Sequence record: PZ452609.1
From: a phage
Length of the DNA stretch: 64,000 nt
Strand: one strand, 5' to 3'
The notes beneath the pieces were generated by a model that ran no database searches, was not told the origin of the DNA, and was given only the letters and a program-made list of their open reading frames with translations. This document shows positions 1 to 53,285 of the stretch, one piece after another. How positions within the stretch are numbered: position 1 is the first letter of the stretch; each line of letters starts with the position of its first letter. A program made the translations under genes and the position numbers.

Positions 1-777
1 CTCAAAAGTAGGTGCATGGAACTCTTCATTGTTCATCAGTTCATAAACCTGTTTCATATGGTTCTGATAAATCTGAGTATCTCCAAAGACACCTATCAAG
101 TACCGTGGAGTGTATCCAGTCATCTTACAAAGAACTTCTAAGATGAAACCATAAGACGCAATATTAAACGGAAGTCCTAAAAAGGTGTCTACTGAACGTT
201 GATACCACTGTAAGTCAACTTCACCCTCATTAGTGATATAAATCTGAAACAGAACATGACAAGGTGCTAAAGCCATTGAGTTTGCTGCAATATCTGCTGC
301 ATTCCAAGCATTAACAAGCATGTAACGGTCTGTGATATCACCCTTCATCTTCGTTACTAAGGCCTCTAGCTGGTCTACAACACAACCATTATGACCTTCA
401 AAGTTTCTCCACTGAACCCCATAGATTCTCCCACCTGCATCTTCTAACCAATCTTGTTCAGAAGAATAATTAGAACTTAACCAGCGTTTAAAATCATCTG
501 ACCAGATAGTCCAGCGTTCCCCATCATTTTCACCCCAAGTGCGATAACGGAGTTCACCAAGTTTATTCTCACCGTTCAGGAACCATAGAGCTTCCCCAAT
601 AACTTGCCGTGTAAACACCTGTTTAGATGTTAAAAGCGGGAAACCAGTTCGCATATCAAAACGAAACTTAGGTGGAGCAAATGCAGAGATAACATCTCCA
701 GTTCGTGTAGTACGCAGTTCACCGACTGATAAAACATGGTTCAGGATATTTTTATAACTTGAATCTGCTTGTGACAT
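1..777 (-). CDS. td: thymidylate synthase; truncated at window edge (C-terminal part missing)
   Basis: Minus-strand ORF starts MSQADSSYKNIL..., contains the ..MALAPCHVLFQ.. active-site Cys motif; runs off position 1. Confidence 0.85.
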   Translation of the reverse strand, partial: MSQADSSYKNILNHVLSVGELRTTRTGDVISAFAPPKFRFDMRTGFPLLTSKQVFTRQVIGEALWFLNGENKLGELRYRTWGENDGERWTIWSDDFKRWLSSNYSSEQDWLEDAGGRIYGVQWRNFEGHNGCVVDQLEALVTKMKGDITDRYMLVNAWNAADIAANSMALAPCHVLFQIYITNEGEVDLQWYQRSVDTFLGLPFNIASYGFILEVLCKMTGYTPRYLIGVFGDTQIYQNHMKQVYELMNNEEFHAPTFE

Positions 778-5258: not shown

Positions 5259-5402
5259 CTGTGTCAGATTTCATATAAGACCTGTCGCTAAACCTTTTAA
5301 TGAAATGTACAACGCATTTCGGTGTATCTTTTGCATCTTTGATGTGCAACCTTTCGAAACTGCGCACTGTGAAGGTTGCATCTGTCATTGTTTGCTTAGG
5401 TT

Positions 5403-5609
5403 TCATTTTCTCTTACCACCAATCTCTACGTCGATAACTTGAACATCACCAGCAACATCAAACTTATGAATGATGCTCTCAACAGTATAAGTCCAACCAT
5501 CAATGCGAACCAACTCACCTTCTCGTGGGACGATTGGATTACGTTGAGCTATGGTTGTAGTGGAGTGAACAACATCATAACGATAGGTATAGTTTACTAA
5601 TACTTCCAT
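5403..5609 (-). CDS. hypothetical protein
   Basis: Start moved to MEVLVNYT, which has a GAGG RBS. Confidence 0.35.
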   Translation of the reverse strand: MEVLVNYTYRYDVVHSTTTIAQRNPIVPREGELVRIDGWTYTVESIIHKFDVAGDVQVIDVEIGGKRK

Positions 5610-5619
5610 CGTGAAAACC

Positions 5620-5877
5620 TCACTCAATAACCGTAGTATGTGATTGACCATTTTTGCCATAGCTATAAGATGTTGTTGTTTGAGAGTTTGGGCATCTGAC
5701 AACAACAATATCTCTGCTTATAGCATCACCATTGAGTTTGTAGATTTTGCAGTCTTGCATCTCTGGAGGGAGGCTGTAAGAAGCATCTTTGTTTTCATAA
5801 GATGGGTTGCAGCCAGCCAGAAAAATTACTCCAAGTGCAACCATTGCTTTCACACAACTCTTAACCTTATTGTTCAC
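5620..5877 (-). CDS. putative lipoprotein
   Basis: Lipobox-like ..FLAGC.. after a hydrophobic N-terminus; GTG start with GAGAGG RBS. Confidence 0.45.
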   Translation of the reverse strand: MNNKVKSCVKAMVALGVIFLAGCNPSYENKDASYSLPPEMQDCKIYKLNGDAISRDIVVVRCPNSQTTTSYSYGKNGQSHTTVIE

Positions 5878-31254: not shown

Positions 31255-33621
31255 ATGCGCATGGTAAATGACCACGCAGAAGTGATTAAGAGTTCAACTT
31301 CTTTAGAGACGTCTCAAGCACAGATTACAATGACACCTGAGATGTTCAGCCTTTTGAGTTCTGGTGTATATACCTTTAAAGAAAGGGCAGTGATTCGTGA
31401 ACTGTCATGTAACGCAGTAGATGCTCAGAAAGAAGCTGGAAAAGAGAACATTCCGTTCCATGTGCATTTACCTACTCGTTTTGAGCCTTACTTTGAAGTT
31501 CGTGATTTTGGAACTGGATTGACTCATGATAAAGTTATGAGTTTGTACCTAAACTACGGGGCTTCTACGAAGAATGACTCTAATGACTACATTGGTGCAA
31601 TGGGTATCGGCTCAAAATCCCCATTTGCAATTGCTCAGTCATTCACAGTATCTAGCTATGTTGATGGTGTTGTTAATAAGTACTCTGTTTATCTTGAGAA
31701 TGGTATCCCTCAAGTAACTAAGCTGACCACTAACCCAACAAAAGAACCTAATGGTTTAGCTGTACGTGTGGCAGTTGCTGACCACCGTATCTCAAAGTTC
31801 TTTGAAGAAGCTGGAAATGTGTACTCATACTTCACTGTAAAACCAGAAAGTAATATTGAGTACGACGATGTATTAGCAGATATGAACGTCATTGCCCGTG
31901 AAGAAGGTGTTTATGATGCCATGATTCATAAGCAAAGCTGGCGTTCTAGTGGTAACAGGACAGAGTTTAATGTGGTGATGGGTAATATTGCCTATCCAGT
32001 GAACATGGAAGCATTACTTGGTGATGATTTCTTCAAAGTCTTGCCAGAGTTTTTCCGTAGGAGCGTAGACCTTGTAAACATCTACATGCCTATTGGTTCA
32101 GTTGCTATAGCAGCTTCTCGTGAAGCATTGCAGATGAATGATACGACAAAAAATGTTATCATCGAGGCTACCAAAAAGATAACTGAAGCAATTACAAAGG
32201 ATGTTATCAAGAAAGTTAATAGCCAACCTACACTCATGGATGCTGCACAGGCTTATGCAGAGCTACGTTTGAACTCACGAGAGATGTTTAATGCTGTGTG
32301 TCCAAAGCTAGAGTGGGGAGGCATTAAGCTTGATTCTCTGGAAGAAGAATTGTTAAACATTCGTCGTGGAATTATCTACGCAGAAGACGGCTCAGTCATT
32401 TATGAACGTGACGGTAAAGGCAATATTAAGGTTGATAGGAACGGGAACAATATCCCTAAAGTAGATTATCTTTATGACCCAGTTGCTTATGTCAAGTTCA
32501 ACTCTTTAGAGAGTAAGATTCGTGCAACAGCACTTTCCTACACTCAAGAGGCAAGCATGTTCAATATCTTTGGTGCAATGCGTAAAAGCCAAATTGAACA
32601 GTTTTTGTTCGTGATTAATGACCGTCGCAATAAAAACGGTACTGAGAAGACTGTAGGACGCAATCAAATTTTGCGTGGTGCATGTCGAGACTACGCCAGT
32701 GAGTCAAATCTGTTTCACAGATACAATGGTATTGTCTTTGTATTCTCGACTGAAAAAGAGTTAGATGATTTAATCAATCTACACAAACTTGATAAAAGCT
32801 TGTTAAAGATTGTGAAGATGTCTGATAAGGAACACCACTATCAGCGTAAAGAAGCTGTAAGGGGTGTTGTAAAACTCTGGAAAGCTGTTCCAGCAGAAAC
32901 TAAAGCTTCATACAAAGAGGTGTCAGAAGACTTAGACACAATTGAAGAGCCTCAGCTTTATATTAAGGCAGTAGGTGACACAGTTGATGGTAGATGTTTT
33001 TGCTCATCTCCAGAGGATGTAGCTAAGTCAGTTGCTAATGTTACAGGCAAGACAGTCTATGTTTTCCGAAAAGCAAATTGGAAAAAGATACCAGAAGACT
33101 GGATTGAAGTAGATGAGAAGCTCTTGAACGACAGCTTAACTGATGTTCATTGGATTAACCATAACAGGTATATGACACGCATCTACATGGATGGTGTCCT
33201 CGACCTTACAAGCAGTTGGATTATTGCCAGAAACTTTACGTTCAATAACAGGAAGATTTCTCGCGGGTATTGTTATTCAAGGGATACTATTAAGACAATC
33301 TTCTTAGAAGGGAATGAAGATGCTGTTGAGGCAATGTTCGGTAAGATTCAGTATGTGGCTGCACCGTTTGCATACACTTACACTATCAGTGTTCTTCAGG
33401 ATTTGAAGTCATGCCTTGATAATGACACAAAACTGTACAAAAAGATTAAAAAAGCAGGTGACCGCATGGTTATCAAGCTGACAAACTATCTTTCAAAAAG
33501 AAAACAAGAAAACTTCTTGCTTTCACACTTAGATTGGAATAAAGTATCACCTATCGAAGTGAGTAAGTTTTTAGGCTTTAATGTGAAATGTGTTCCAGAA
33601 GGTACAACAATTTACGATTAA
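31255..33621 (+). CDS. rIIA: rIIA-like protein (ATPase-fold)
   Basis: AVIRELSCNAVDAQ, RDFGTGL and NDYIGAMGIGSKSPF match T4 rIIA N-terminal motifs. Confidence 0.8.
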   Translation: MRMVNDHAEVIKSSTSLETSQAQITMTPEMFSLLSSGVYTFKERAVIRELSCNAVDAQKEAGKENIPFHVHLPTRFEPYFEVRDFGTGLTHDKVMSLYLNYGASTKNDSNDYIGAMGIGSKSPFAIAQSFTVSSYVDGVVNKYSVYLENGIPQVTKLTTNPTKEPNGLAVRVAVADHRISKFFEEAGNVYSYFTVKPESNIEYDDVLADMNVIAREEGVYDAMIHKQSWRSSGNRTEFNVVMGNIAYPVNMEALLGDDFFKVLPEFFRRSVDLVNIYMPIGSVAIAASREALQMNDTTKNVIIEATKKITEAITKDVIKKVNSQPTLMDAAQAYAELRLNSREMFNAVCPKLEWGGIKLDSLEEELLNIRRGIIYAEDGSVIYERDGKGNIKVDRNGNNIPKVDYLYDPVAYVKFNSLESKIRATALSYTQEASMFNIFGAMRKSQIEQFLFVINDRRNKNGTEKTVGRNQILRGACRDYASESNLFHRYNGIVFVFSTEKELDDLINLHKLDKSLLKIVKMSDKEHHYQRKEAVRGVVKLWKAVPAETKASYKEVSEDLDTIEEPQLYIKAVGDTVDGRCFCSSPEDVAKSVANVTGKTVYVFRKANWKKIPEDWIEVDEKLLNDSLTDVHWINHNRYMTRIYMDGVLDLTSSWIIARNFTFNNRKISRGYCYSRDTIKTIFLEGNEDAVEAMFGKIQYVAAPFAYTYTISVLQDLKSCLDNDTKLYKKIKKAGDRMVIKLTNYLSKRKQENFLLSHLDWNKVSPIEVSKFLGFNVKCVPEGTTIYD

Positions 33622-33700
33622 AGTGTTTGACAAGGGGCTTTGAAGCCCCTTAGAATAGCCTCACAAATTGATTGATTAACTAACAAGAGAGAGTAATAAG

Positions 33701-34810
33701 ATGACTACTAAAACTAAAGCACAGATTGACGCAGAAATTTACAAACTGGTTAAAGAAGGTAAGCTGACTAAAACAGCTATTGCACAGAAGTTCAATACTT
33801 CAACCCGTTCAGTTGGTCGTGCTGTAGAGCGTCATGAAGCAACCTTAAAAGGCAAGAAGAAGGCAACTTCTACACCAGCTACGAAGACTTTGAAACAATT
33901 TGCTAAGACTTTTAAAAAGAAAGCTGGCAAACCAGTTGAAAAGGTCGTTAAAGACACTGTACAGAAAGCTCCAGTAAATAAACTGCACGAAGCTATGCAG
34001 AAAGATGACAAGATTGAGTACATGATTACTGGTGATTCTGTAATTATGACTTATGGTTCAGAATCTGAAATTGTTGAGTCTACTCATCCGAACTATCAAG
34101 AGATTGTAGTTCATGTTGTGAAAGGTCAGTTCAAGAAAGCATTTGAACTGATGAACATTCGTAAGTCTATCGAAAACTTCACTCAGGGTGCTATCACAAT
34201 CAAAGGCGACAAGCTATTCTACGGTGCTGTTGAGATGCGTTCTACTCTGGTTGACCGTATTCTTCACATGATGAAAACTGGCGATAAAGGTTTTGAACGA
34301 CTTGTAATGTTCTTCGAAAAACTGATGGAAAACCCATCTAAAGATTCTGTAGAACAACTTTGGGGATTTGTATCTCACCTTGATGTTGAAATTGATGAAG
34401 AAGGCTACATCATTGGTTGGAAGAAAGTCTCTACTCGTGAAGGCAAGCTGGTTGACTCTCACACCTACAAAGTGCCTAATGATTTGGGTAACATTGTAGA
34501 AATGCCACGTTGGATGGTTGATAATAACCGTAACGTAACTTGCTCTCAAGGTCTTCATGTTGGTGCTTGGGATTATGTTCGTTGCTTCTCAGGTGATACA
34601 ATCCTGAAGGTTCGCGTACATCCACGAGATGTTGTATCTGTTCCAACTGATTACAATGATATGAAGATGCGTTCCTCTCGTTATGAAGTTGCAGCAATCG
34701 TTGATAATCAACGTAAAGTGCTGGAAGCATGGGACGGTAAGACTGAAGCTTTGCATGTCATCGTTGGCACTGCTGGTGAACTCATCTCTCAACGTAAACG
34801 TGAAATCTAA
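33701..34810 (+). CDS. rIIB: rIIB-like protein
   Basis: LFYGAVEMRSTLVDRIL, IVEMPRWMVD and VHPRDVVSVPTDYNDMKMRSSRYEV match T4 rIIB. Confidence 0.8.
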   Translation: MTTKTKAQIDAEIYKLVKEGKLTKTAIAQKFNTSTRSVGRAVERHEATLKGKKKATSTPATKTLKQFAKTFKKKAGKPVEKVVKDTVQKAPVNKLHEAMQKDDKIEYMITGDSVIMTYGSESEIVESTHPNYQEIVVHVVKGQFKKAFELMNIRKSIENFTQGAITIKGDKLFYGAVEMRSTLVDRILHMMKTGDKGFERLVMFFEKLMENPSKDSVEQLWGFVSHLDVEIDEEGYIIGWKKVSTREGKLVDSHTYKVPNDLGNIVEMPRWMVDNNRNVTCSQGLHVGAWDYVRCFSGDTILKVRVHPRDVVSVPTDYNDMKMRSSRYEVAAIVDNQRKVLEAWDGKTEALHVIVGTAGELISQRKREI

Positions 34811-34826
34811 TAAGTAATTTCTTAAA

Positions 34827-34849
34827 AGGCTGCTTCGGCGGCCTTTTTT
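34827..34849 (+). terminator. rho-independent terminator (UUCG-type loop)
   Basis: aggctgc-ttcg-gcggcct then tttttt, after rIIB. Confidence 0.6.
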
Positions 34850-34910
34850 ATTTGTATTTTGTGCAGAGTGCTGTATAATTGATGTCACGATAAACTAAAC
34901 AGGAGAACCA

Positions 34911-35459
34911 ATGAAGAAATTGATTCTAGGTTTGTGCTTAATGTTTACAGCACACTTATCTTATGCAGTTGACTGCCCAGAACTATCAATTAGCCAAAAA
35001 GTGAACATGTTAAAAGCTTACCAGTATGGTGAGAATAACATGGGTAAAGGTTGGGGTATCACTCTAGCAGCTATAGCCTTACAAGAGTCAGAGTTAGGTC
35101 TGAAGGTAGAAAATAAAAAGACCCATGACTATGGTATCTTCCAGAATCACTTGAAGACTGTTGTAAAGCGTAACAAAATTAGTCCTAATGTTGCTAAAAA
35201 GAAACTCTTAAAAGATTTTGACTATGCCGCAAAAGAAACACATAAAGAGCTTGAGTTTTGGACGAAGGTGCATGGTCACCCAAAGTCAAAGAAGACTTTA
35301 CAAAAAGTTTTAGCATCATATAATGCTGGGTATTCGTACAGAATCCCTAAAGCTAAGAAATATTCTCAAGATGTCTATAACAACATGAAAGTTATTGCTC
35401 AATGTGAATTTGCAACAAACATTTCTAAGGTAAACCATGAAAAAATTAAAAAAGTCTGA
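34911..35459 (+). CDS. secreted protein
   Basis: Signal-peptide-like MKKLILGLCLMFTAHLSYA. Confidence 0.45.
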   Translation: MKKLILGLCLMFTAHLSYAVDCPELSISQKVNMLKAYQYGENNMGKGWGITLAAIALQESELGLKVENKKTHDYGIFQNHLKTVVKRNKISPNVAKKKLLKDFDYAAKETHKELEFWTKVHGHPKSKKTLQKVLASYNAGYSYRIPKAKKYSQDVYNNMKVIAQCEFATNISKVNHEKIKKV

Positions 35460-36132
35460 TGAAGTCCTGTGCCACGCTTATGACTTACATCCTCATGAGT
35501 TAGGTCTTGATTCCTGTGTATGGACTCCAGAACAGTGTAGGGATTTTGAAGACACTGCAAGAGAAGTTGTATGTTCACTGGAAGAGTTCCACACATCAGA
35601 ACCAATTGTGAACGTTGTGGACAAAGAGACTGGACAAACTATAGGTGTAAGGCGCGATAGTTTAGTCATAGTCAATAAAGACCTTGTAGAAAAAGGTAAC
35701 CTCATCTTAGCAGATATTGATGGTGTTCTTACAAATTTTAATCACGAAGATTGCTCAACGGAATTGACTGATGGTTCATTCTCACAGTACACTAATCTTC
35801 TTGATTCTGTAAGAGCAAAGCCAACATATGTTTTCAACATTATTGATGCAATTGCAAATCATGCAGCAGTTGGACTCTTGACAGCAAGAGGTGAATCTCA
35901 GAGAATACCTACTGAGATGTTTTTAAGGCACAATATAGAGCATGATTACTTGCTTTTTATGCGTGGTTTTGGAACTAACTCTATAAGTGCAGAAAGTTTG
36001 AAAGTGAGGATGATTCAGTCTTGCATTCTTCCTTACTTTAATATAGTATGCTTTATAGAAGATACAGAGAATAATGTTCAGAAGGTAAACAGAATCCTTC
36101 CACACATTAAAACTATGTTAGTTAAACATTGA
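35437..36132 (+). CDS. hypothetical protein
   Basis: 231-aa ORF. Confidence 0.4.
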   Translation: MKKLKKSDEVLCHAYDLHPHELGLDSCVWTPEQCRDFEDTAREVVCSLEEFHTSEPIVNVVDKETGQTIGVRRDSLVIVNKDLVEKGNLILADIDGVLTNFNHEDCSTELTDGSFSQYTNLLDSVRAKPTYVFNIIDAIANHAAVGLLTARGESQRIPTEMFLRHNIEHDYLLFMRGFGTNSISAESLKVRMIQSCILPYFNIVCFIEDTENNVQKVNRILPHIKTMLVKH

Positions 36133-36143
36133 GAGAAGAACTT

Positions 36144-36608
36144 ATGAACAATATTATTACGGTAGCACTGGACGATACGGCAAACAAATCTGAAGTAGTT
36201 CGTAAAATGATTCAAGGTAACTTTGAAGGTAAAATTTTCCGTGCTGTTAATGTAAAAGCTGATGGTAGCATTCGTGAATATCGTGCATTGTTGAACGTTA
36301 AGAAGCACGTAAAAGGTGTTGGTTCAACGACTGCACACAAAGAAAACCTGATGACTATCTATGATATGGGTAAGGCTTCAGAGTTAGGTGCTGAAGGTAT
36401 CGTTAAAGAAGGTGCTCCGTATCGCTCTTTCAATCTGGAAACTACTCTTATGCTTTCCTTTACAAGTGGTTCCAAAACAATCACTTATCTCTTTACTGAT
36501 GCTGCAACGGTATCTGCTATTAAGGATAGCACTGTCAAAGCTGGCGTAGTTGCTGCTGCAAAAGCTTCTTCGATGGCTGCAAATATCCTTGCTAAAGTCC
36601 TCGGTTAA
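36144..36608 (+). CDS. hypothetical protein
   Basis: Start moved to MNNIITV with GAGAGAAG RBS; followed by terminator. Confidence 0.45.
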   Translation: MNNIITVALDDTANKSEVVRKMIQGNFEGKIFRAVNVKADGSIREYRALLNVKKHVKGVGSTTAHKENLMTIYDMGKASELGAEGIVKEGAPYRSFNLETTLMLSFTSGSKTITYLFTDAATVSAIKDSTVKAGVVAAAKASSMAANILAKVLG

Positions 36609-36620
36609 GGTTAAGATACA

Positions 36621-36641
36621 GGCTCCTTCGGGAGCCTTTTT
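36621..36641 (+). terminator. rho-independent terminator (UUCG-type loop)
   Basis: ggctcc-ttcg-ggagcc then ttttt. Confidence 0.6.
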
Positions 36642-36660
36642 CATTTCAGGAGATTGTTAA

Positions 36661-37008
36661 ATGACATTTAAAGAGTTCTGTCAAGCTACTTTCATAATTG
36701 TTTTCTTAGTTGGGGCAGGTGTCTGGGGAGGATACTCTTACAGAGACTACCAAGTTGCTGAAACTGAGCTAAACAACCAGAAGCTAATAAGTGTTGCTAA
36801 AGATGCTTATCAGGAAGGATTAGCTACACTGAGCACCAATTACAAAAATGATTTGAAAGACGTGCTTGCTAAGAATAAGCACACAAAAGAGGTACTGACA
36901 TATGAAAAGACTAAGCCAGAGTTTTATAATGTTTGTGTTACTGATAACTATGTCAGGGTGTTCAACGAACAAAGTGAGCAATACATTCAAAAACTCCCAA
37001 GTAAGTGA
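36661..37008 (+). CDS. membrane protein; possible i-spanin
   Basis: N-terminal TM segment FIIVFLVGAGVWGG, then coiled-coil-like region; 3' end overlaps the next ORF. Confidence 0.35.
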   Translation: MTFKEFCQATFIIVFLVGAGVWGGYSYRDYQVAETELNNQKLISVAKDAYQEGLATLSTNYKNDLKDVLAKNKHTKEVLTYEKTKPEFYNVCVTDNYVRVFNEQSEQYIQKLPSK

Positions 37009-37168
37009 AAGTGATAAGTACACTCAGGAAGATGTAAGATATGCTGTCAAAGGTAACACTGGTGCAGACTTATCAGAAGCCCTTGAGTTTTATCGTGACG
37101 GGTACTATCAGTGTACTATGAAAGCTAACAACTTGATTGATATGATTTTATTAGGGAATAAGCAGTAA
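36902..37168 (+). CDS. lipoprotein; possible o-spanin
   Basis: Signal + lipobox FVLLITMSGC; out-of-frame overlap with upstream membrane protein. Confidence 0.35.
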   Translation: MKRLSQSFIMFVLLITMSGCSTNKVSNTFKNSQVSESDKYTQEDVRYAVKGNTGADLSEALEFYRDGYYQCTMKANNLIDMILLGNKQ

Positions 37169-37440
37169 TGACACAAAGTAATGATGAAACTTTCTACACA
37201 GAAGGTTACTTACTTCTACCGAGACCGAAAGATACTTACATGAGGATTGATTTCTTACCTACGATTATGGATAATGTAATGTGTCACATCTTTATGCAAG
37301 GTATCACAGCACAGCTTAAGCATGTTGGTAAAGAGTGCAAAATAAAGGTTGACACTCATCCAGAAATCAAAGAGAATCACTACACATGGTTCCTACCAGA
37401 CTCTAAAGAAATCTTAGCAGTTCTTAAAACGAGGAAATGA
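37168..37440 (+). CDS. hypothetical protein
   Basis: 90-aa ORF. Confidence 0.35.
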   Translation: MTQSNDETFYTEGYLLLPRPKDTYMRIDFLPTIMDNVMCHIFMQGITAQLKHVGKECKIKVDTHPEIKENHYTWFLPDSKEILAVLKTRK

Positions 37441-37751
37441 TTATGCAATTCCAGCCAACAAATCGTGGATTTTCTTATGCAGAATTTAAAGATGCTAAAG
37501 GGGAAATTTGTACTTTACAAGAGAGTTCATCATACGAACCATGTATCTGGTTAGGTGCTAAAGAGGTCTCTGTTCAGTACCTAGATAATGGCTGGAAAAC
37601 ACTTGATATCCCAGCATTAGTTGGTAAAGATTTTATAGGTAATCAAAGAATGAAGCTCAATCAAGAACAGGTAAAAGAGTTGTTGCCGTACCTTCAATAC
37701 TTTGCTGAAAATGGTGAATTACCAACAGAGGAACTTACAAATGCAGATTAA
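37437..37751 (+). CDS. hypothetical protein
   Basis: 104-aa ORF. Confidence 0.35.
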   Translation: MIMQFQPTNRGFSYAEFKDAKGEICTLQESSSYEPCIWLGAKEVSVQYLDNGWKTLDIPALVGKDFIGNQRMKLNQEQVKELLPYLQYFAENGELPTEELTNAD

Positions 37752-38067
37752 TGGAAGAGACTTTGTAGCCGTTTACTACGAGAAAGGTAAAGAAGTTGGC
37801 GTAGCGCAAGTATCTTATGGCAATGGTGGGTGGCTATATGGAACAATCGCAGTAGTTGGAACGAGAAGTGATACAAAAACTTTTAAAGATTGTGTTGACC
37901 TTCTTGAAGAATCCATTCAGAATCATTGGTGTCTGATATGGATGACTGACAACGAAGTGATAGAACGCTTCAAAAAGATTGATATCAACATTGATAGTAT
38001 TGAGCATGTTGATTTATATGAGCTAACTGAGAAGGTAAACTATGAGAGTAATTCTAGCCAGAGATAA
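37741..38067 (+). CDS. hypothetical protein
   Basis: Start moved to MQINGRDF with GAGGA RBS. Confidence 0.35.
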   Translation: MQINGRDFVAVYYEKGKEVGVAQVSYGNGGWLYGTIAVVGTRSDTKTFKDCVDLLEESIQNHWCLIWMTDNEVIERFKKIDINIDSIEHVDLYELTEKVNYESNSSQR

Positions 38068-38269
38068 AAAGACACGGAAACTCATCCGGTCAGCAGTATT
38101 CATTGGAAGAAATGAAGTCATCCCGTTTACAGCAAACGATGTGATAGCCTACAGGAAAAACTTAGTGTTTAGTGATTGCTTGCGTGGCTTCATCTCCCAA
38201 CCGTTGGAAGATTTTAAAAGCCGTTGTGGTAAAGGTATCATCATTCAAGAGGCAATTATCAATGGCTGA
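38042..38269 (+). CDS. hypothetical protein
   Basis: 75-aa ORF. Confidence 0.3.
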   Translation: MRVILARDKKTRKLIRSAVFIGRNEVIPFTANDVIAYRKNLVFSDCLRGFISQPLEDFKSRCGKGIIIQEAIING

Positions 38270-38462
38270 CTTCTGCAAAGACTGTTCTATCGAAATGTTC
38301 GGACGTGATACAGGTGACTTAAAAGGTCTTATCACTGAAGATGACTTTAAAGCTGGTTATGCAATGCCAGTAATCTGTGAAGGTTGTGGGTGCATCTGGG
38401 TAGACCACGAAGGACAACGTGTAAAACCTTCAGAAGACAAAGAATCTTGGGAGAGATGTTAA
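38263..38462 (+). CDS. small zinc-ribbon protein
   Basis: Start at MADFCKDCS; CKDCS..CEGCGC. Confidence 0.3.
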
Positions 38463-39248
38463 ATGGGTATTGTAAAAATAATTAATGGTGATATCTTTGC
38501 CGCATTTGATAAAGGTAAGTTTGACATCATCGGTCACGGTTGCAACTGTATGAATTTAATGGGTGCAGGTATCGCTGACAAGATTTCTAAACTTTACCCA
38601 AAAGCATATGAGACCGATACAGAAGTTTATCTGTATGCAGGTGGTATAGGACACAAACCCTGTGAAAATTTACTGGGTAATTTCTCTGTAGCACGTTTAA
38701 AACAAGGTCGTATAGCTAACCTTTACACTCAGCTTAAGACTGGTAAAGATGCCCGATACAGTGCTTTAGAGTCATCTTTGAAACAGCTTAACAGATACTG
38801 TGAAGTTAATCAGTTGAAGAAGGTTGGTTTACCTATGATTGGTGCAGGTATCGGTGGACTTGACCCTCAAGCCGTCACAGTTATCATTAATCAGGTGATG
38901 AAGAGTGTAGATGTTTATCTGTATGTCTACGAAGGAGAGATGTACCACAAGTTACGCTCAGGTTGGAATAACTACTGTGAACCAGAATACTTTGCAGGTG
39001 TAGTAACGTTCAAAGATGATACAGTTACCCTCTTCAGACGAAGAAAAGGTAAGATACATCAAAGTAACCCTCCGGTTGAGAAGATGTCTCTAAGTAACGC
39101 TCTAGTTACCCACCTGTCGAAGAGCAATCACAGGATAGCCGTAACATTTGGCAGTGATGCAGATACATATATTTATGCAAGAACTGATGAGGATATCGAG
39201 ACGGTCTTCTCTTCACCAGAAGTTACCTTCTTAGACGCAAAGAACTAA
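38463..39248 (+). CDS. macro-domain protein (ADP-ribose binding/processing)
   Basis: GHGCNCMNLMGAGIA and a second GAGIGG glycine-rich motif typical of macro domains. Confidence 0.7.
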   Translation: MGIVKIINGDIFAAFDKGKFDIIGHGCNCMNLMGAGIADKISKLYPKAYETDTEVYLYAGGIGHKPCENLLGNFSVARLKQGRIANLYTQLKTGKDARYSALESSLKQLNRYCEVNQLKKVGLPMIGAGIGGLDPQAVTVIINQVMKSVDVYLYVYEGEMYHKLRSGWNNYCEPEYFAGVVTFKDDTVTLFRRRKGKIHQSNPPVEKMSLSNALVTHLSKSNHRIAVTFGSDADTYIYARTDEDIETVFSSPEVTFLDAKN

Positions 39249-39317
39249 GAAACTCTGTATAATATTCACAATAGACTAAGCCTTCTTTATCTGGTAAATT
39301 TTTCAGGTAAGGAGGGC

Positions 39318-39501
39318 TTTTTCATTTCAGGATTGTGCAGGTAGAGTTCTGTAGAGAAATCTGTAGAGAGAATTTTGAACTCCAAAGAGAAAATTCATTT
39401 TCAAACTGTGCAGGTAATCTCCAAAGAGCTTTTTCATTTTCAAAACGTGCAGACCCCGCTCAGGTCGGGCAAGAAAAATCATTTTAGAATCGTGCAGGTA
39501 G
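39318..39501. repeat. four direct repeats of about 22 bp (tcatttYcaNaaYYgtgcagg), iteron-like
   Basis: Copies near 39318, 39391, 39428 and 39474, followed by a polypyrimidine tract 39524-39553. Confidence 0.6.
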
Positions 39502-46599: not shown

Positions 46600-46699
46600 N
46601 NNNNNNNNNNNNNNNNNNNNNNNNNNNNNNNNNNNNNNNNNNNNNNNNNNNNNNNNNNNNNNNNNNNNNNNNNNNNNNNNNNNNNNNNNNNNNNNNNNN
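46600..46699. other. assembly gap (100 N)
   Basis: Run of exactly 100 n. Confidence 0.95.
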
Positions 46700-52820: not shown

Positions 52821-53285
52821 TTACTTTGGGTATACACTGTCAAGATAAATGTCAGCTTCCATTCTACGTCTGTTTTTCAGACCGTTTGAAGTGACCTTCT
52901 TACCTTTGACTGTAACCTTGTTCCACCACTGCATAGCTTCTGCACAACCTACCTTATTACCAGCATTGTGGCGCTTGATAAATGTGGAATCCTGCATAGC
53001 TGTGATACCGATGTTGTATGTTTCACTTACAAGTGCATCGAACTCATTCTGAGTAGTTGGAACCTTGATAGCTTTGTTCACTGCTGCAACAAACTTCTCA
53101 ACATCCGCGAGAAGATACTGTTCAGCTTGTTCAGCAGTAATTTTCATACCCATCTTAACAGGTTTTCCGTCAATACGGATTGTCCCATACCCGATTGTTG
53201 GGATTCCGGCAGAATCTTCGTAAGCCTCTAACTCCAGACCTTCGAAGAACTTAATAGCATCTAAACCTTTTCTTGAGAGTTGCAT
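52821..53285 (-). CDS. endolysin, T4-type lysozyme (GH24)
   Basis: N-terminal FEGLELEAYEDSAGIPTIGYG..T contains the catalytic E-(8 aa)-D-(5 aa)-T spacing of GH24 lysozymes. Confidence 0.75.
   Translation of the reverse strand: MQLSRKGLDAIKFFEGLELEAYEDSAGIPTIGYGTIRIDGKPVKMGMKITAEQAEQYLLADVEKFVAAVNKAIKVPTTQNEFDALVSETYNIGITAMQDSTFIKRHNAGNKVGCAEAMQWWNKVTVKGKKVTSNGLKNRRRMEADIYLDSVYPK

Follow-up and report, generated by a model that had tools for sequence, protein, structure and literature searches.

A membrane-protein gene and a lipoprotein gene overlap out of frame

We analysed a 64,000-nt stretch of phage DNA (sequence record PZ452609.1), referred to here as the window, and focused on two overlapping open reading frames (ORFs) on its plus strand. 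By megablast, the whole window is from a Felixounavirus (Felix O1-like myophage, Ounavirinae). Positions 34500–38500 are 100% identical, in reverse orientation, to Escherichia coli O157 typing phage 1 (KP869100 / NC_041979), and the remainder of the window shares 98–99.8% identity with typing phages 1 and 15. Positions 1–25000 share 98.0% identity with typing phage 1 and 99.1% with typing phage 15; the corresponding values for positions 39001–64000 are 99.2% and 99.8%. The genome is a mosaic relative of these two phages. At 46600–46699, in a region that carries no annotation in the typing phage 1 record, the sequence consists of 100 consecutive N (bases masked or unknown).

An earlier note, made by reading the window's sequence, had described the upstream ORF as a protein with an N-terminal transmembrane segment and the downstream one as a lipobox-bearing ORF overlapping it out of frame, the classic layout of overlapped spanins. 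The coordinates that it gave are exact for both ORFs (Table 1). We call their products the i-spanin and the o-spanin, after the assignment argued below.

The best Kyte–Doolittle window of the i-spanin (19 aa, score 1.75) has the sequence FCQATFIIVFLVGAGVWGG, and a scan of the whole protein with the same scale found no second hydrophobic segment. The predicted orientation is N-in/C-out. Charges flanking the segment are weak in this protein and clearly positive-inside in its homologue from phage Zyzzx, in which RRR precedes the segment. One cysteine lies inside the membrane segment and one (C92) in the predicted periplasmic domain.

The o-spanin N-terminus reads MKRLSQSFIMFVLLITMSG/CSTNK, with a positive n-region, a hydrophobic core and a PS51257-type lipobox ending at Cys20. 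The residue at position +2 is Ser, not Asp, so that the protein has no inner-membrane retention signal. After processing, the predicted mature protein would comprise 69 aa, with no proline and with a second invariant cysteine, Cys71. Among the 641 ORFs of the window (Met start, at least 40 aa, six frames), the o-spanin ORF alone carries a PS51257-like lipoprotein signal, and a relaxed scan of the window returned just one further plausible candidate, at 5620–5877 on the minus strand. The signal-peptide, lipobox and membrane-segment checks that the earlier note had proposed were all positive by the PS51257-type pattern and Kyte–Doolittle hydropathy.

Table 1. Features of the overlapping gene pair, its neighbourhood and the endolysin gene (window positions).
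Feature	Coordinates	Strand	Description
rIIA	31255–33621	+	Upstream of the spanin pair
rIIB	33701–34810	+	Upstream of the spanin pair
182-aa secreted-type protein	34911–35459	+	N-terminus MKKLILGLCLMFTAHLSYA/VD, a Sec-type signal peptide; gene flanked by rIIB and polynucleotide kinase
Polynucleotide kinase	35437–36132	+	Upstream of the spanin pair
Terminator-like hairpin	36620–36637	+	AGGCTCC-TTCG-GGAGCCT, then TTTTTCATTT; lies past the stop of the upstream gene (36608) and ahead of the i-spanin ribosome-binding site
i-spanin Shine–Dalgarno	36648–36652	+	AGGAG, 8 nt before the ATG; the SpaninDB string for Felix O1 p014, tttttcatttcAGGAGattgttaa, is identical
i-spanin gene (very probable assignment)	36661–37008	+	115 aa; membrane segment at about residues 6–24; about 88 aa predicted to be periplasmic, including the invariant Cys92
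o-spanin Shine–Dalgarno	36889–36892	+	GAGG, within the i-spanin coding sequence, 9 nt upstream of ATG 36902; SpaninDB equivalent in Felix O1 p015, acaaaaGAGGTactaacat
o-spanin gene (very probable assignment)	36902–37168	+	88-aa precursor; signal peptide 1–19; lipobox TMSG/C, Cys20 codon at 36959–36961
Out-of-frame overlap	36902–37008	+	107 nt; i-spanin residues 81–115 and o-spanin residues 1–36 (signal peptide, lipobox)
Endolysin	52821–53285	−	Soluble phage lysozyme, 154 aa; PF00959 (Phage_lysozyme), E = 4.5e-41; RefSeq 'endolysin RrrD'

The pair and its overlap are conserved across distant phages

Both ORFs are genuine genes, and both evolve under purifying selection. Compared with phage fjerdesal, the i-spanin gene has a dN/dS of 0.026, and the part of the o-spanin gene outside the overlap has a dS of 1.12, a dN of 0.124 and a dN/dS of 0.11. 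The other two frames of that part contain stops and give ratios above 1. This stretch coincides with a mosaic patch at 37000–37300, in which DNA identity to fjerdesal falls to 77–85% from 97–100% in the flanks; the patch takes in the o-spanin gene beyond the overlap and the beginning of the gene that follows, and its changes are mostly synonymous (dS 1.1, dN/dS 0.11). An o-spanin at least 99% identical occurs in only 3 phage records, and an i-spanin at least 95% identical in 212.

Word-indexed homologue searches returned close relatives only, and the distant homologues described here come from tblastn against phage genomes. Homologues with 27–45% identity are present in Hafnia phage Zyzzx (Ounavirinae), Erwinia phage phiEa21-4 (Kolesnikvirus), Kuravirus podophages (Bas89, and phiEco32 as catalogued in SpaninDB) and the Sashavirus siphophage Solent. 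In each distant pair, a protein with an N-terminal membrane segment is overlapped by a lipoprotein ORF (MKR/KL..., lipobox, C-S/T-T); the overlaps in Zyzzx, phiEa21-4, Bas89 and Solent measure 116–164 nt and are out of frame. The overlap is kept in phages that are only about 30% identical. All diverged pairs retain the membrane segment, the lipobox cysteine and one periplasmic cysteine per protein, and Cys-Ser/Thr-Thr is conserved in all five diverged o-spanin homologues.

Conservation is concentrated at a few positions. Across homologues 27–35% identical to it, the invariant residues of the i-spanin include E82, K83, F88, N90, C92, Y97 and N102, and its only invariant motif reads EK-TKP-F-N-C...Y..FN. 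All of these C-terminal residues are encoded by nucleotides that also encode the o-spanin signal peptide and lipobox. Invariant residues of the o-spanin include C20, T22, K39, G54, C71, N76 and L78, and its C-terminus forms a conserved, probably helical module, E-F/W-Y-R-D..Y..C...N-G-L-I-D.

Many deposited gene models truncate the o-spanin

The RefSeq record of typing phage 1 names the i-spanin (gp086) 'Rz-like spanin' and the o-spanin (gp087) 'hypothetical protein'. In the deposited genomes of typing phage 1, fjerdesal and Pr103Blw, the o-spanin starts at the equivalent of ATG 36950 (Met17, 'MSGC...'), and many metagenomic gene calls likewise begin there, giving products of 72–73 aa. This start deletes the signal peptide. 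The evidence supports 36902 as the true start, because SpaninDB uses this codon, the GAGG ribosome-binding site precedes it, and distant homologues align from residue 1 of the resulting protein. The SpaninDB entry for Felix O1 p015 describes an 89-aa precursor with the 36902-equivalent start, a GAGG site, the signal sequence MKKLSQSFIMFVLLITMSG, a TMSG lipobox and a mature end beginning CST (PMC6139136).

With gene callers often missing or truncating it, and with one published Felixounavirus reported to have an i-spanin alone, the second ORF might be taken for a chance open frame that is never expressed. We regard this as vanishingly improbable: it is effectively refuted by a dN/dS of 0.11 at a dS of 1.1 where the alternative frames carry stops, and the ORF moreover has its own ribosome-binding site and is conserved together with its lipobox in the distant phages above. 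The corrected start is a small new point that applies to this genome and many relatives; with the truncated start, pipelines label the o-spanin gene 'hypothetical' or report that a phage 'lacks' an o-spanin. Its importance is mostly one of annotation hygiene. Felix O1-like phages are, in addition, widely proposed for biocontrol of Salmonella and E. coli, for which a correct inventory of lysis genes is useful.

The two genes very probably encode a two-component spanin

We assessed the pair against the spanin class criteria of Summer 2007 and Kongari 2018. The two proteins combine a single N-terminal membrane segment, a lipoprotein signal, overlapping genes and a periplasmic cysteine in each partner, and they belong to catalogued spanin families: the JH2 i- and o-spanin families of SpaninDB and, for the i-spanin, PHROG phrog_1152 ('Rz-like spanin'; full-length match, E = 9.2e-42). 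We therefore consider it very likely that this Felix O1-like myophage (Felixounavirus) encodes its two-component spanin in these two ORFs.

The spanin pair, its overlapped layout and the scattering of the lysis genes are already known from orthologues in SpaninDB and RefSeq and from published genome notes. SpaninDB (Kongari 2018, PMC6139136) lists Felix O1 (NC_005282) p014/p015 as an overlapped ('ovl') two-component spanin in families 'JH2', records the overlapped architecture in Felix O1, wV8, phiEa21-4 and phiEco32, and places JH2, Felix01, wV8, Moogle, Mushroom, UAB_Phi87, phiEco32 and others in the i-spanin family. Both genes are annotated as i- and o-spanin in sister genomes including fjerdesal, Moogle, Mordin, Sf13-19, VSe11 and JN01. 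The overlapped-spanin reading of the earlier note thus agrees with the sequence criteria, with RefSeq and sister annotations and with the SpaninDB entry. A search of the literature found no complementation, lipid-labelling or knockout study of the Felix O1-type spanin family; the functional assignment draws on gene and protein architecture, genomic association and analogy.

On one point the earlier note's expectation failed. It had treated the lack of a predicted periplasmic coiled coil as grounds for rejecting the spanin reading, and no coiled coil is predicted: SpaninDB gives the Felix O1 i-spanin 66% predicted helix and 0 Pepcoil coiled coils, and in a crude heptad-periodicity test 1,323 of 2,000 shuffles scored at least as high as the real sequence (67 of 2,000 for an Rz-like control). 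Formally, then, the note's own ground for refutation applies. It does not overturn the spanin assignment, because more than 120 catalogued i-spanins also have no coiled-coil prediction (PMC6139136), which makes the coiled coil a typical feature of i-spanins and not a defining one. AlphaFold2 modelled the i-spanin as helical (mean pLDDT 55, low confidence) and the o-spanin as a disordered linker that leads into a C-terminal helix (mean pLDDT 51.5, low confidence); both alignments were shallow, with 12–13 close relatives, and the pLDDT values are too low for the models to be used.

Neither protein matched a Pfam spanin family, including PF03245 (Phage_lysis) and PF06085, at E ≤ 1; an NCBIfam scan of both yielded no spanin family and only sub-threshold noise; and sequence and profile searches of the PDB found no solved-structure relative of either. 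The o-spanin matches phrog_4180 (E = 2.3e-47), a family labelled 'unknown function'. This label, the absence of Rz1-like proline-rich character from the mature protein, and a location in an early/middle-looking region beside rIIA/rIIB and the polynucleotide kinase gene, 15.65 kb from the endolysin, would also suit a lipoprotein of the superinfection-exclusion or receptor-masking type (T5 Llp, Cor), with an unrelated membrane protein upstream and an overlap that reflects gene packing. We judge this account to be highly improbable. The overlapped pair is co-inherited across unrelated phage groups with its cysteines co-conserved, the o-spanin also has a weak match to the spanin family phrog_456 ('Rz-like spanin', E = 1.3e-4), and the SpaninDB curators class the pair as spanins. 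In addition, a phage that infects a Gram-negative bacterium would be expected to require a spanin, and the window holds no other candidate.

Independent evidence comes from Solent, whose homologous pair lies directly after holin/antiholin, endolysin and holin/antiholin genes. The Solent arrangement is an independent lysis association for this spanin family, and the position of these homologues inside a lysis cassette speaks against the exclusion-lipoprotein account as well.

The spanin genes lie outside any late lysis cassette

The earlier note had placed the lysozyme gene about 16 kb from the pair on the opposite strand; the distance is 15.65 kb and the strands are indeed opposite. Its suggestion that the lysis genes are dispersed is also right and was already in print: in Felix O1-like phages the endolysin, i-spanin, o-spanin and putative holin genes are dispersed over the genome (PMC4319497), and such phages have been credited with a 'T4-like lysis system' (PMC4392139). 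A bona fide spanin pair next to the lysozyme would have competed with the one described here, and neither a second spanin pair nor a u-spanin was found near the lysozyme within the window.

The spanin pair sits among early/middle-type genes (rII, polynucleotide kinase, a macro-domain protein). A gene for a 159-aa hypothetical protein on the plus strand separates it from the kinase gene, and six small hypothetical genes and the macro-domain gene lie 3' of it. The hairpin upstream of the pair has a 7-bp stem with 5 G-C pairs, a TTCG loop and a T-run, and appears in the minimum-free-energy fold; in phiEa21-4 a terminator is annotated at the equivalent relative position. It ends about 23 nt ahead of the i-spanin start codon, which leaves no space for an intervening promoter. 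Similar hairpins occur at 34824–34847 and 39278–39319, and such hairpins flank the unit 36661–39248. With the upstream hairpin conserved, spanin dosage could be set by read-through.

No holin label was assigned by PHROGs or Pfam to any of the window's small membrane proteins. In Pr103Blw, a 'putative holin' gene adjoins the thymidylate synthase gene (thyA), and the window's left edge cuts thyA (1–777, minus strand), which puts the holin candidate just outside the window, about 37 kb from the spanins.

These surroundings bear on a further explanation, namely that the two proteins form an envelope-spanning complex whose primary role is another one, such as lysis timing or inhibition or rII-linked envelope sensing, while the outer membrane is disrupted by other means. 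The proximity to rIIA/rIIB (31255–34810) and to the secreted SLT-like protein, the terminator-like hairpin directly upstream and the missing coiled-coil prediction are all compatible with such a role. We nevertheless think it very unlikely. In T4, too, the spanin genes are unlinked from those for holin and endolysin and lie one gene from the polynucleotide kinase gene, so that the location of the pair is uninformative. The window yielded no candidate for an alternative disruptin or u-spanin, the Solent homologues again fall within a lysis cassette, and nothing positively supports another role.

The pair differs from the spanins of lambda and T4

The two-component spanin of the window is orthologous to Felix O1 p014/p015. 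The i-spanins are identical at 114 of 115 residues and the o-spanins at about 85%, and the two pairs share start codons, ribosome-binding sites, the TMSG/C lipobox, the 107-nt overlap and the cysteine pattern. The Felix O1 genes lie at 5330–5678 and 5571–5841, giving their 107-nt overlap, and the overlap in wV8 is also 107 nt (PMC6139136). The two differ in the mosaic patch at 37000–37300, where DNA identity is about 77%, against 97–100% in the flanks: relative to p015, the window's o-spanin has about 12 substitutions in its non-overlapping part and is one residue shorter at the C-terminus.

In T4, the spanin genes pseT.3 and pseT.2 are unlinked from t (holin) and e (endolysin), and both genomes encode rIIA/rIIB and a soluble lysozyme. 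The T4 o-spanin resembles that of the window in having no proline-rich region and in having predicted structure, and in both phages one small gene separates the spanin pair from the polynucleotide kinase gene. The gene order is permuted, however, reading alc-pseT.3(i)-pseT.2(o)-pseT.1-pseT in T4 and kinase-hypothetical-i-o in the window, and the T4 genes are classed as 'separated' whereas those of the window are 'overlapped'. The T4 i-spanin has no periplasmic cysteine and its o-spanin two, against one in each protein here, and PseT.3 has one predicted coiled-coil helix, against none in the window's i-spanin. Direct comparison with PseT.3, PseT.2 and PseT.1 gave no significant alignment, and the intervening genes likewise have no detectable similarity. 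Common descent with the T4 spanins as the source of the kinase-linked position is therefore unsupported at the sequence level.

Lambda Rz/Rz1 would share with the pair its functional class and, by analogy, its topology, a type II inner-membrane protein with an outer-membrane lipoprotein encoded in another frame; both systems also have periplasmic cysteines available for intermolecular disulfides. Here too the differences are extensive. Rz1 is fully embedded in Rz, whereas the window's genes overlap in part; Rz has two coiled-coil domains, and none is predicted in the window's i-spanin; prolines account for 10 of 40 residues in Rz1 and for none of 69 in the mature o-spanin; and Rz/Rz1 lie within a lysis cassette, unlike the window pair. 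BLASTP and phmmer alignments to Rz/Rz1 were insignificant (about 22 bits).

A model for the final step of lysis

By analogy with the lambda and T4 systems (PMC6139136), we infer the membrane topology of the two proteins, their assembly into a complex, its disulfides and its disruption of the outer membrane. The N-terminal segment would anchor the 115-aa protein in the inner membrane, with about 88 residues exposed to the periplasm. The 88-aa precursor would be exported, acquire a lipid at Cys20 and be cut by signal peptidase II; with Ser and not Asp at position +2, the lipoprotein would then go to the outer membrane and lodge in its inner leaflet. The periplasmic domains would then bind each other, probably near their C-termini, in a complex that threads the peptidoglycan meshwork and is probably stabilised by disulfides through C92 of the i-spanin and C71 of the o-spanin. 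Once holin and soluble lysozyme have destroyed the wall, the complexes would be free to disrupt the outer membrane as the final step of lysis, probably through fusion of the inner and outer membranes.

The missing coiled-coil prediction for the i-spanin, the lack of proline in the o-spanin, its C-terminal module and the i-spanin motif that shares its nucleotides with the o-spanin signal peptide invite the thought that the Felix O1/phiEco32/9NA-like spanin family breaks the outer membrane by a mechanism materially unlike lambda's coiled-coil zippering and proline-rich region. We hold this to be doubtful; if true, it would make the family a useful second model for the fusion or rupture of two membranes by small proteins of the periplasm.

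Two further putative secreted products are encoded in the window

The 182-aa secreted-type protein encoded between rIIB and the polynucleotide kinase gene has a sub-threshold SLT match (PF01464, E = 9e-4) and an 'ESELG' motif. It is named 'putative lysin' in some relatives and 'Vs.1' in phiEa21-4, and it has no relative in the PDB. It could be a second, secreted wall-active enzyme, encoded about 1.2 kb from the spanins.

The lipoprotein-like ORF at 5620–5877 (minus strand) has a GTG start and the N-terminus MNNKVKSCVKAMVALGVIFLAG/CNPSY, with a classic L-A-G-C lipobox. It sits among small genes near those for DNA ligase and DNA polymerase, has no adjacent membrane-protein partner, and shares just 89.5% identity with typing phage 1. 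Many Vibrio, Acinetobacter and jumbo phages encode a homologue of its product, which matches phrog_902 (unknown function) and may be an exclusion-type lipoprotein.
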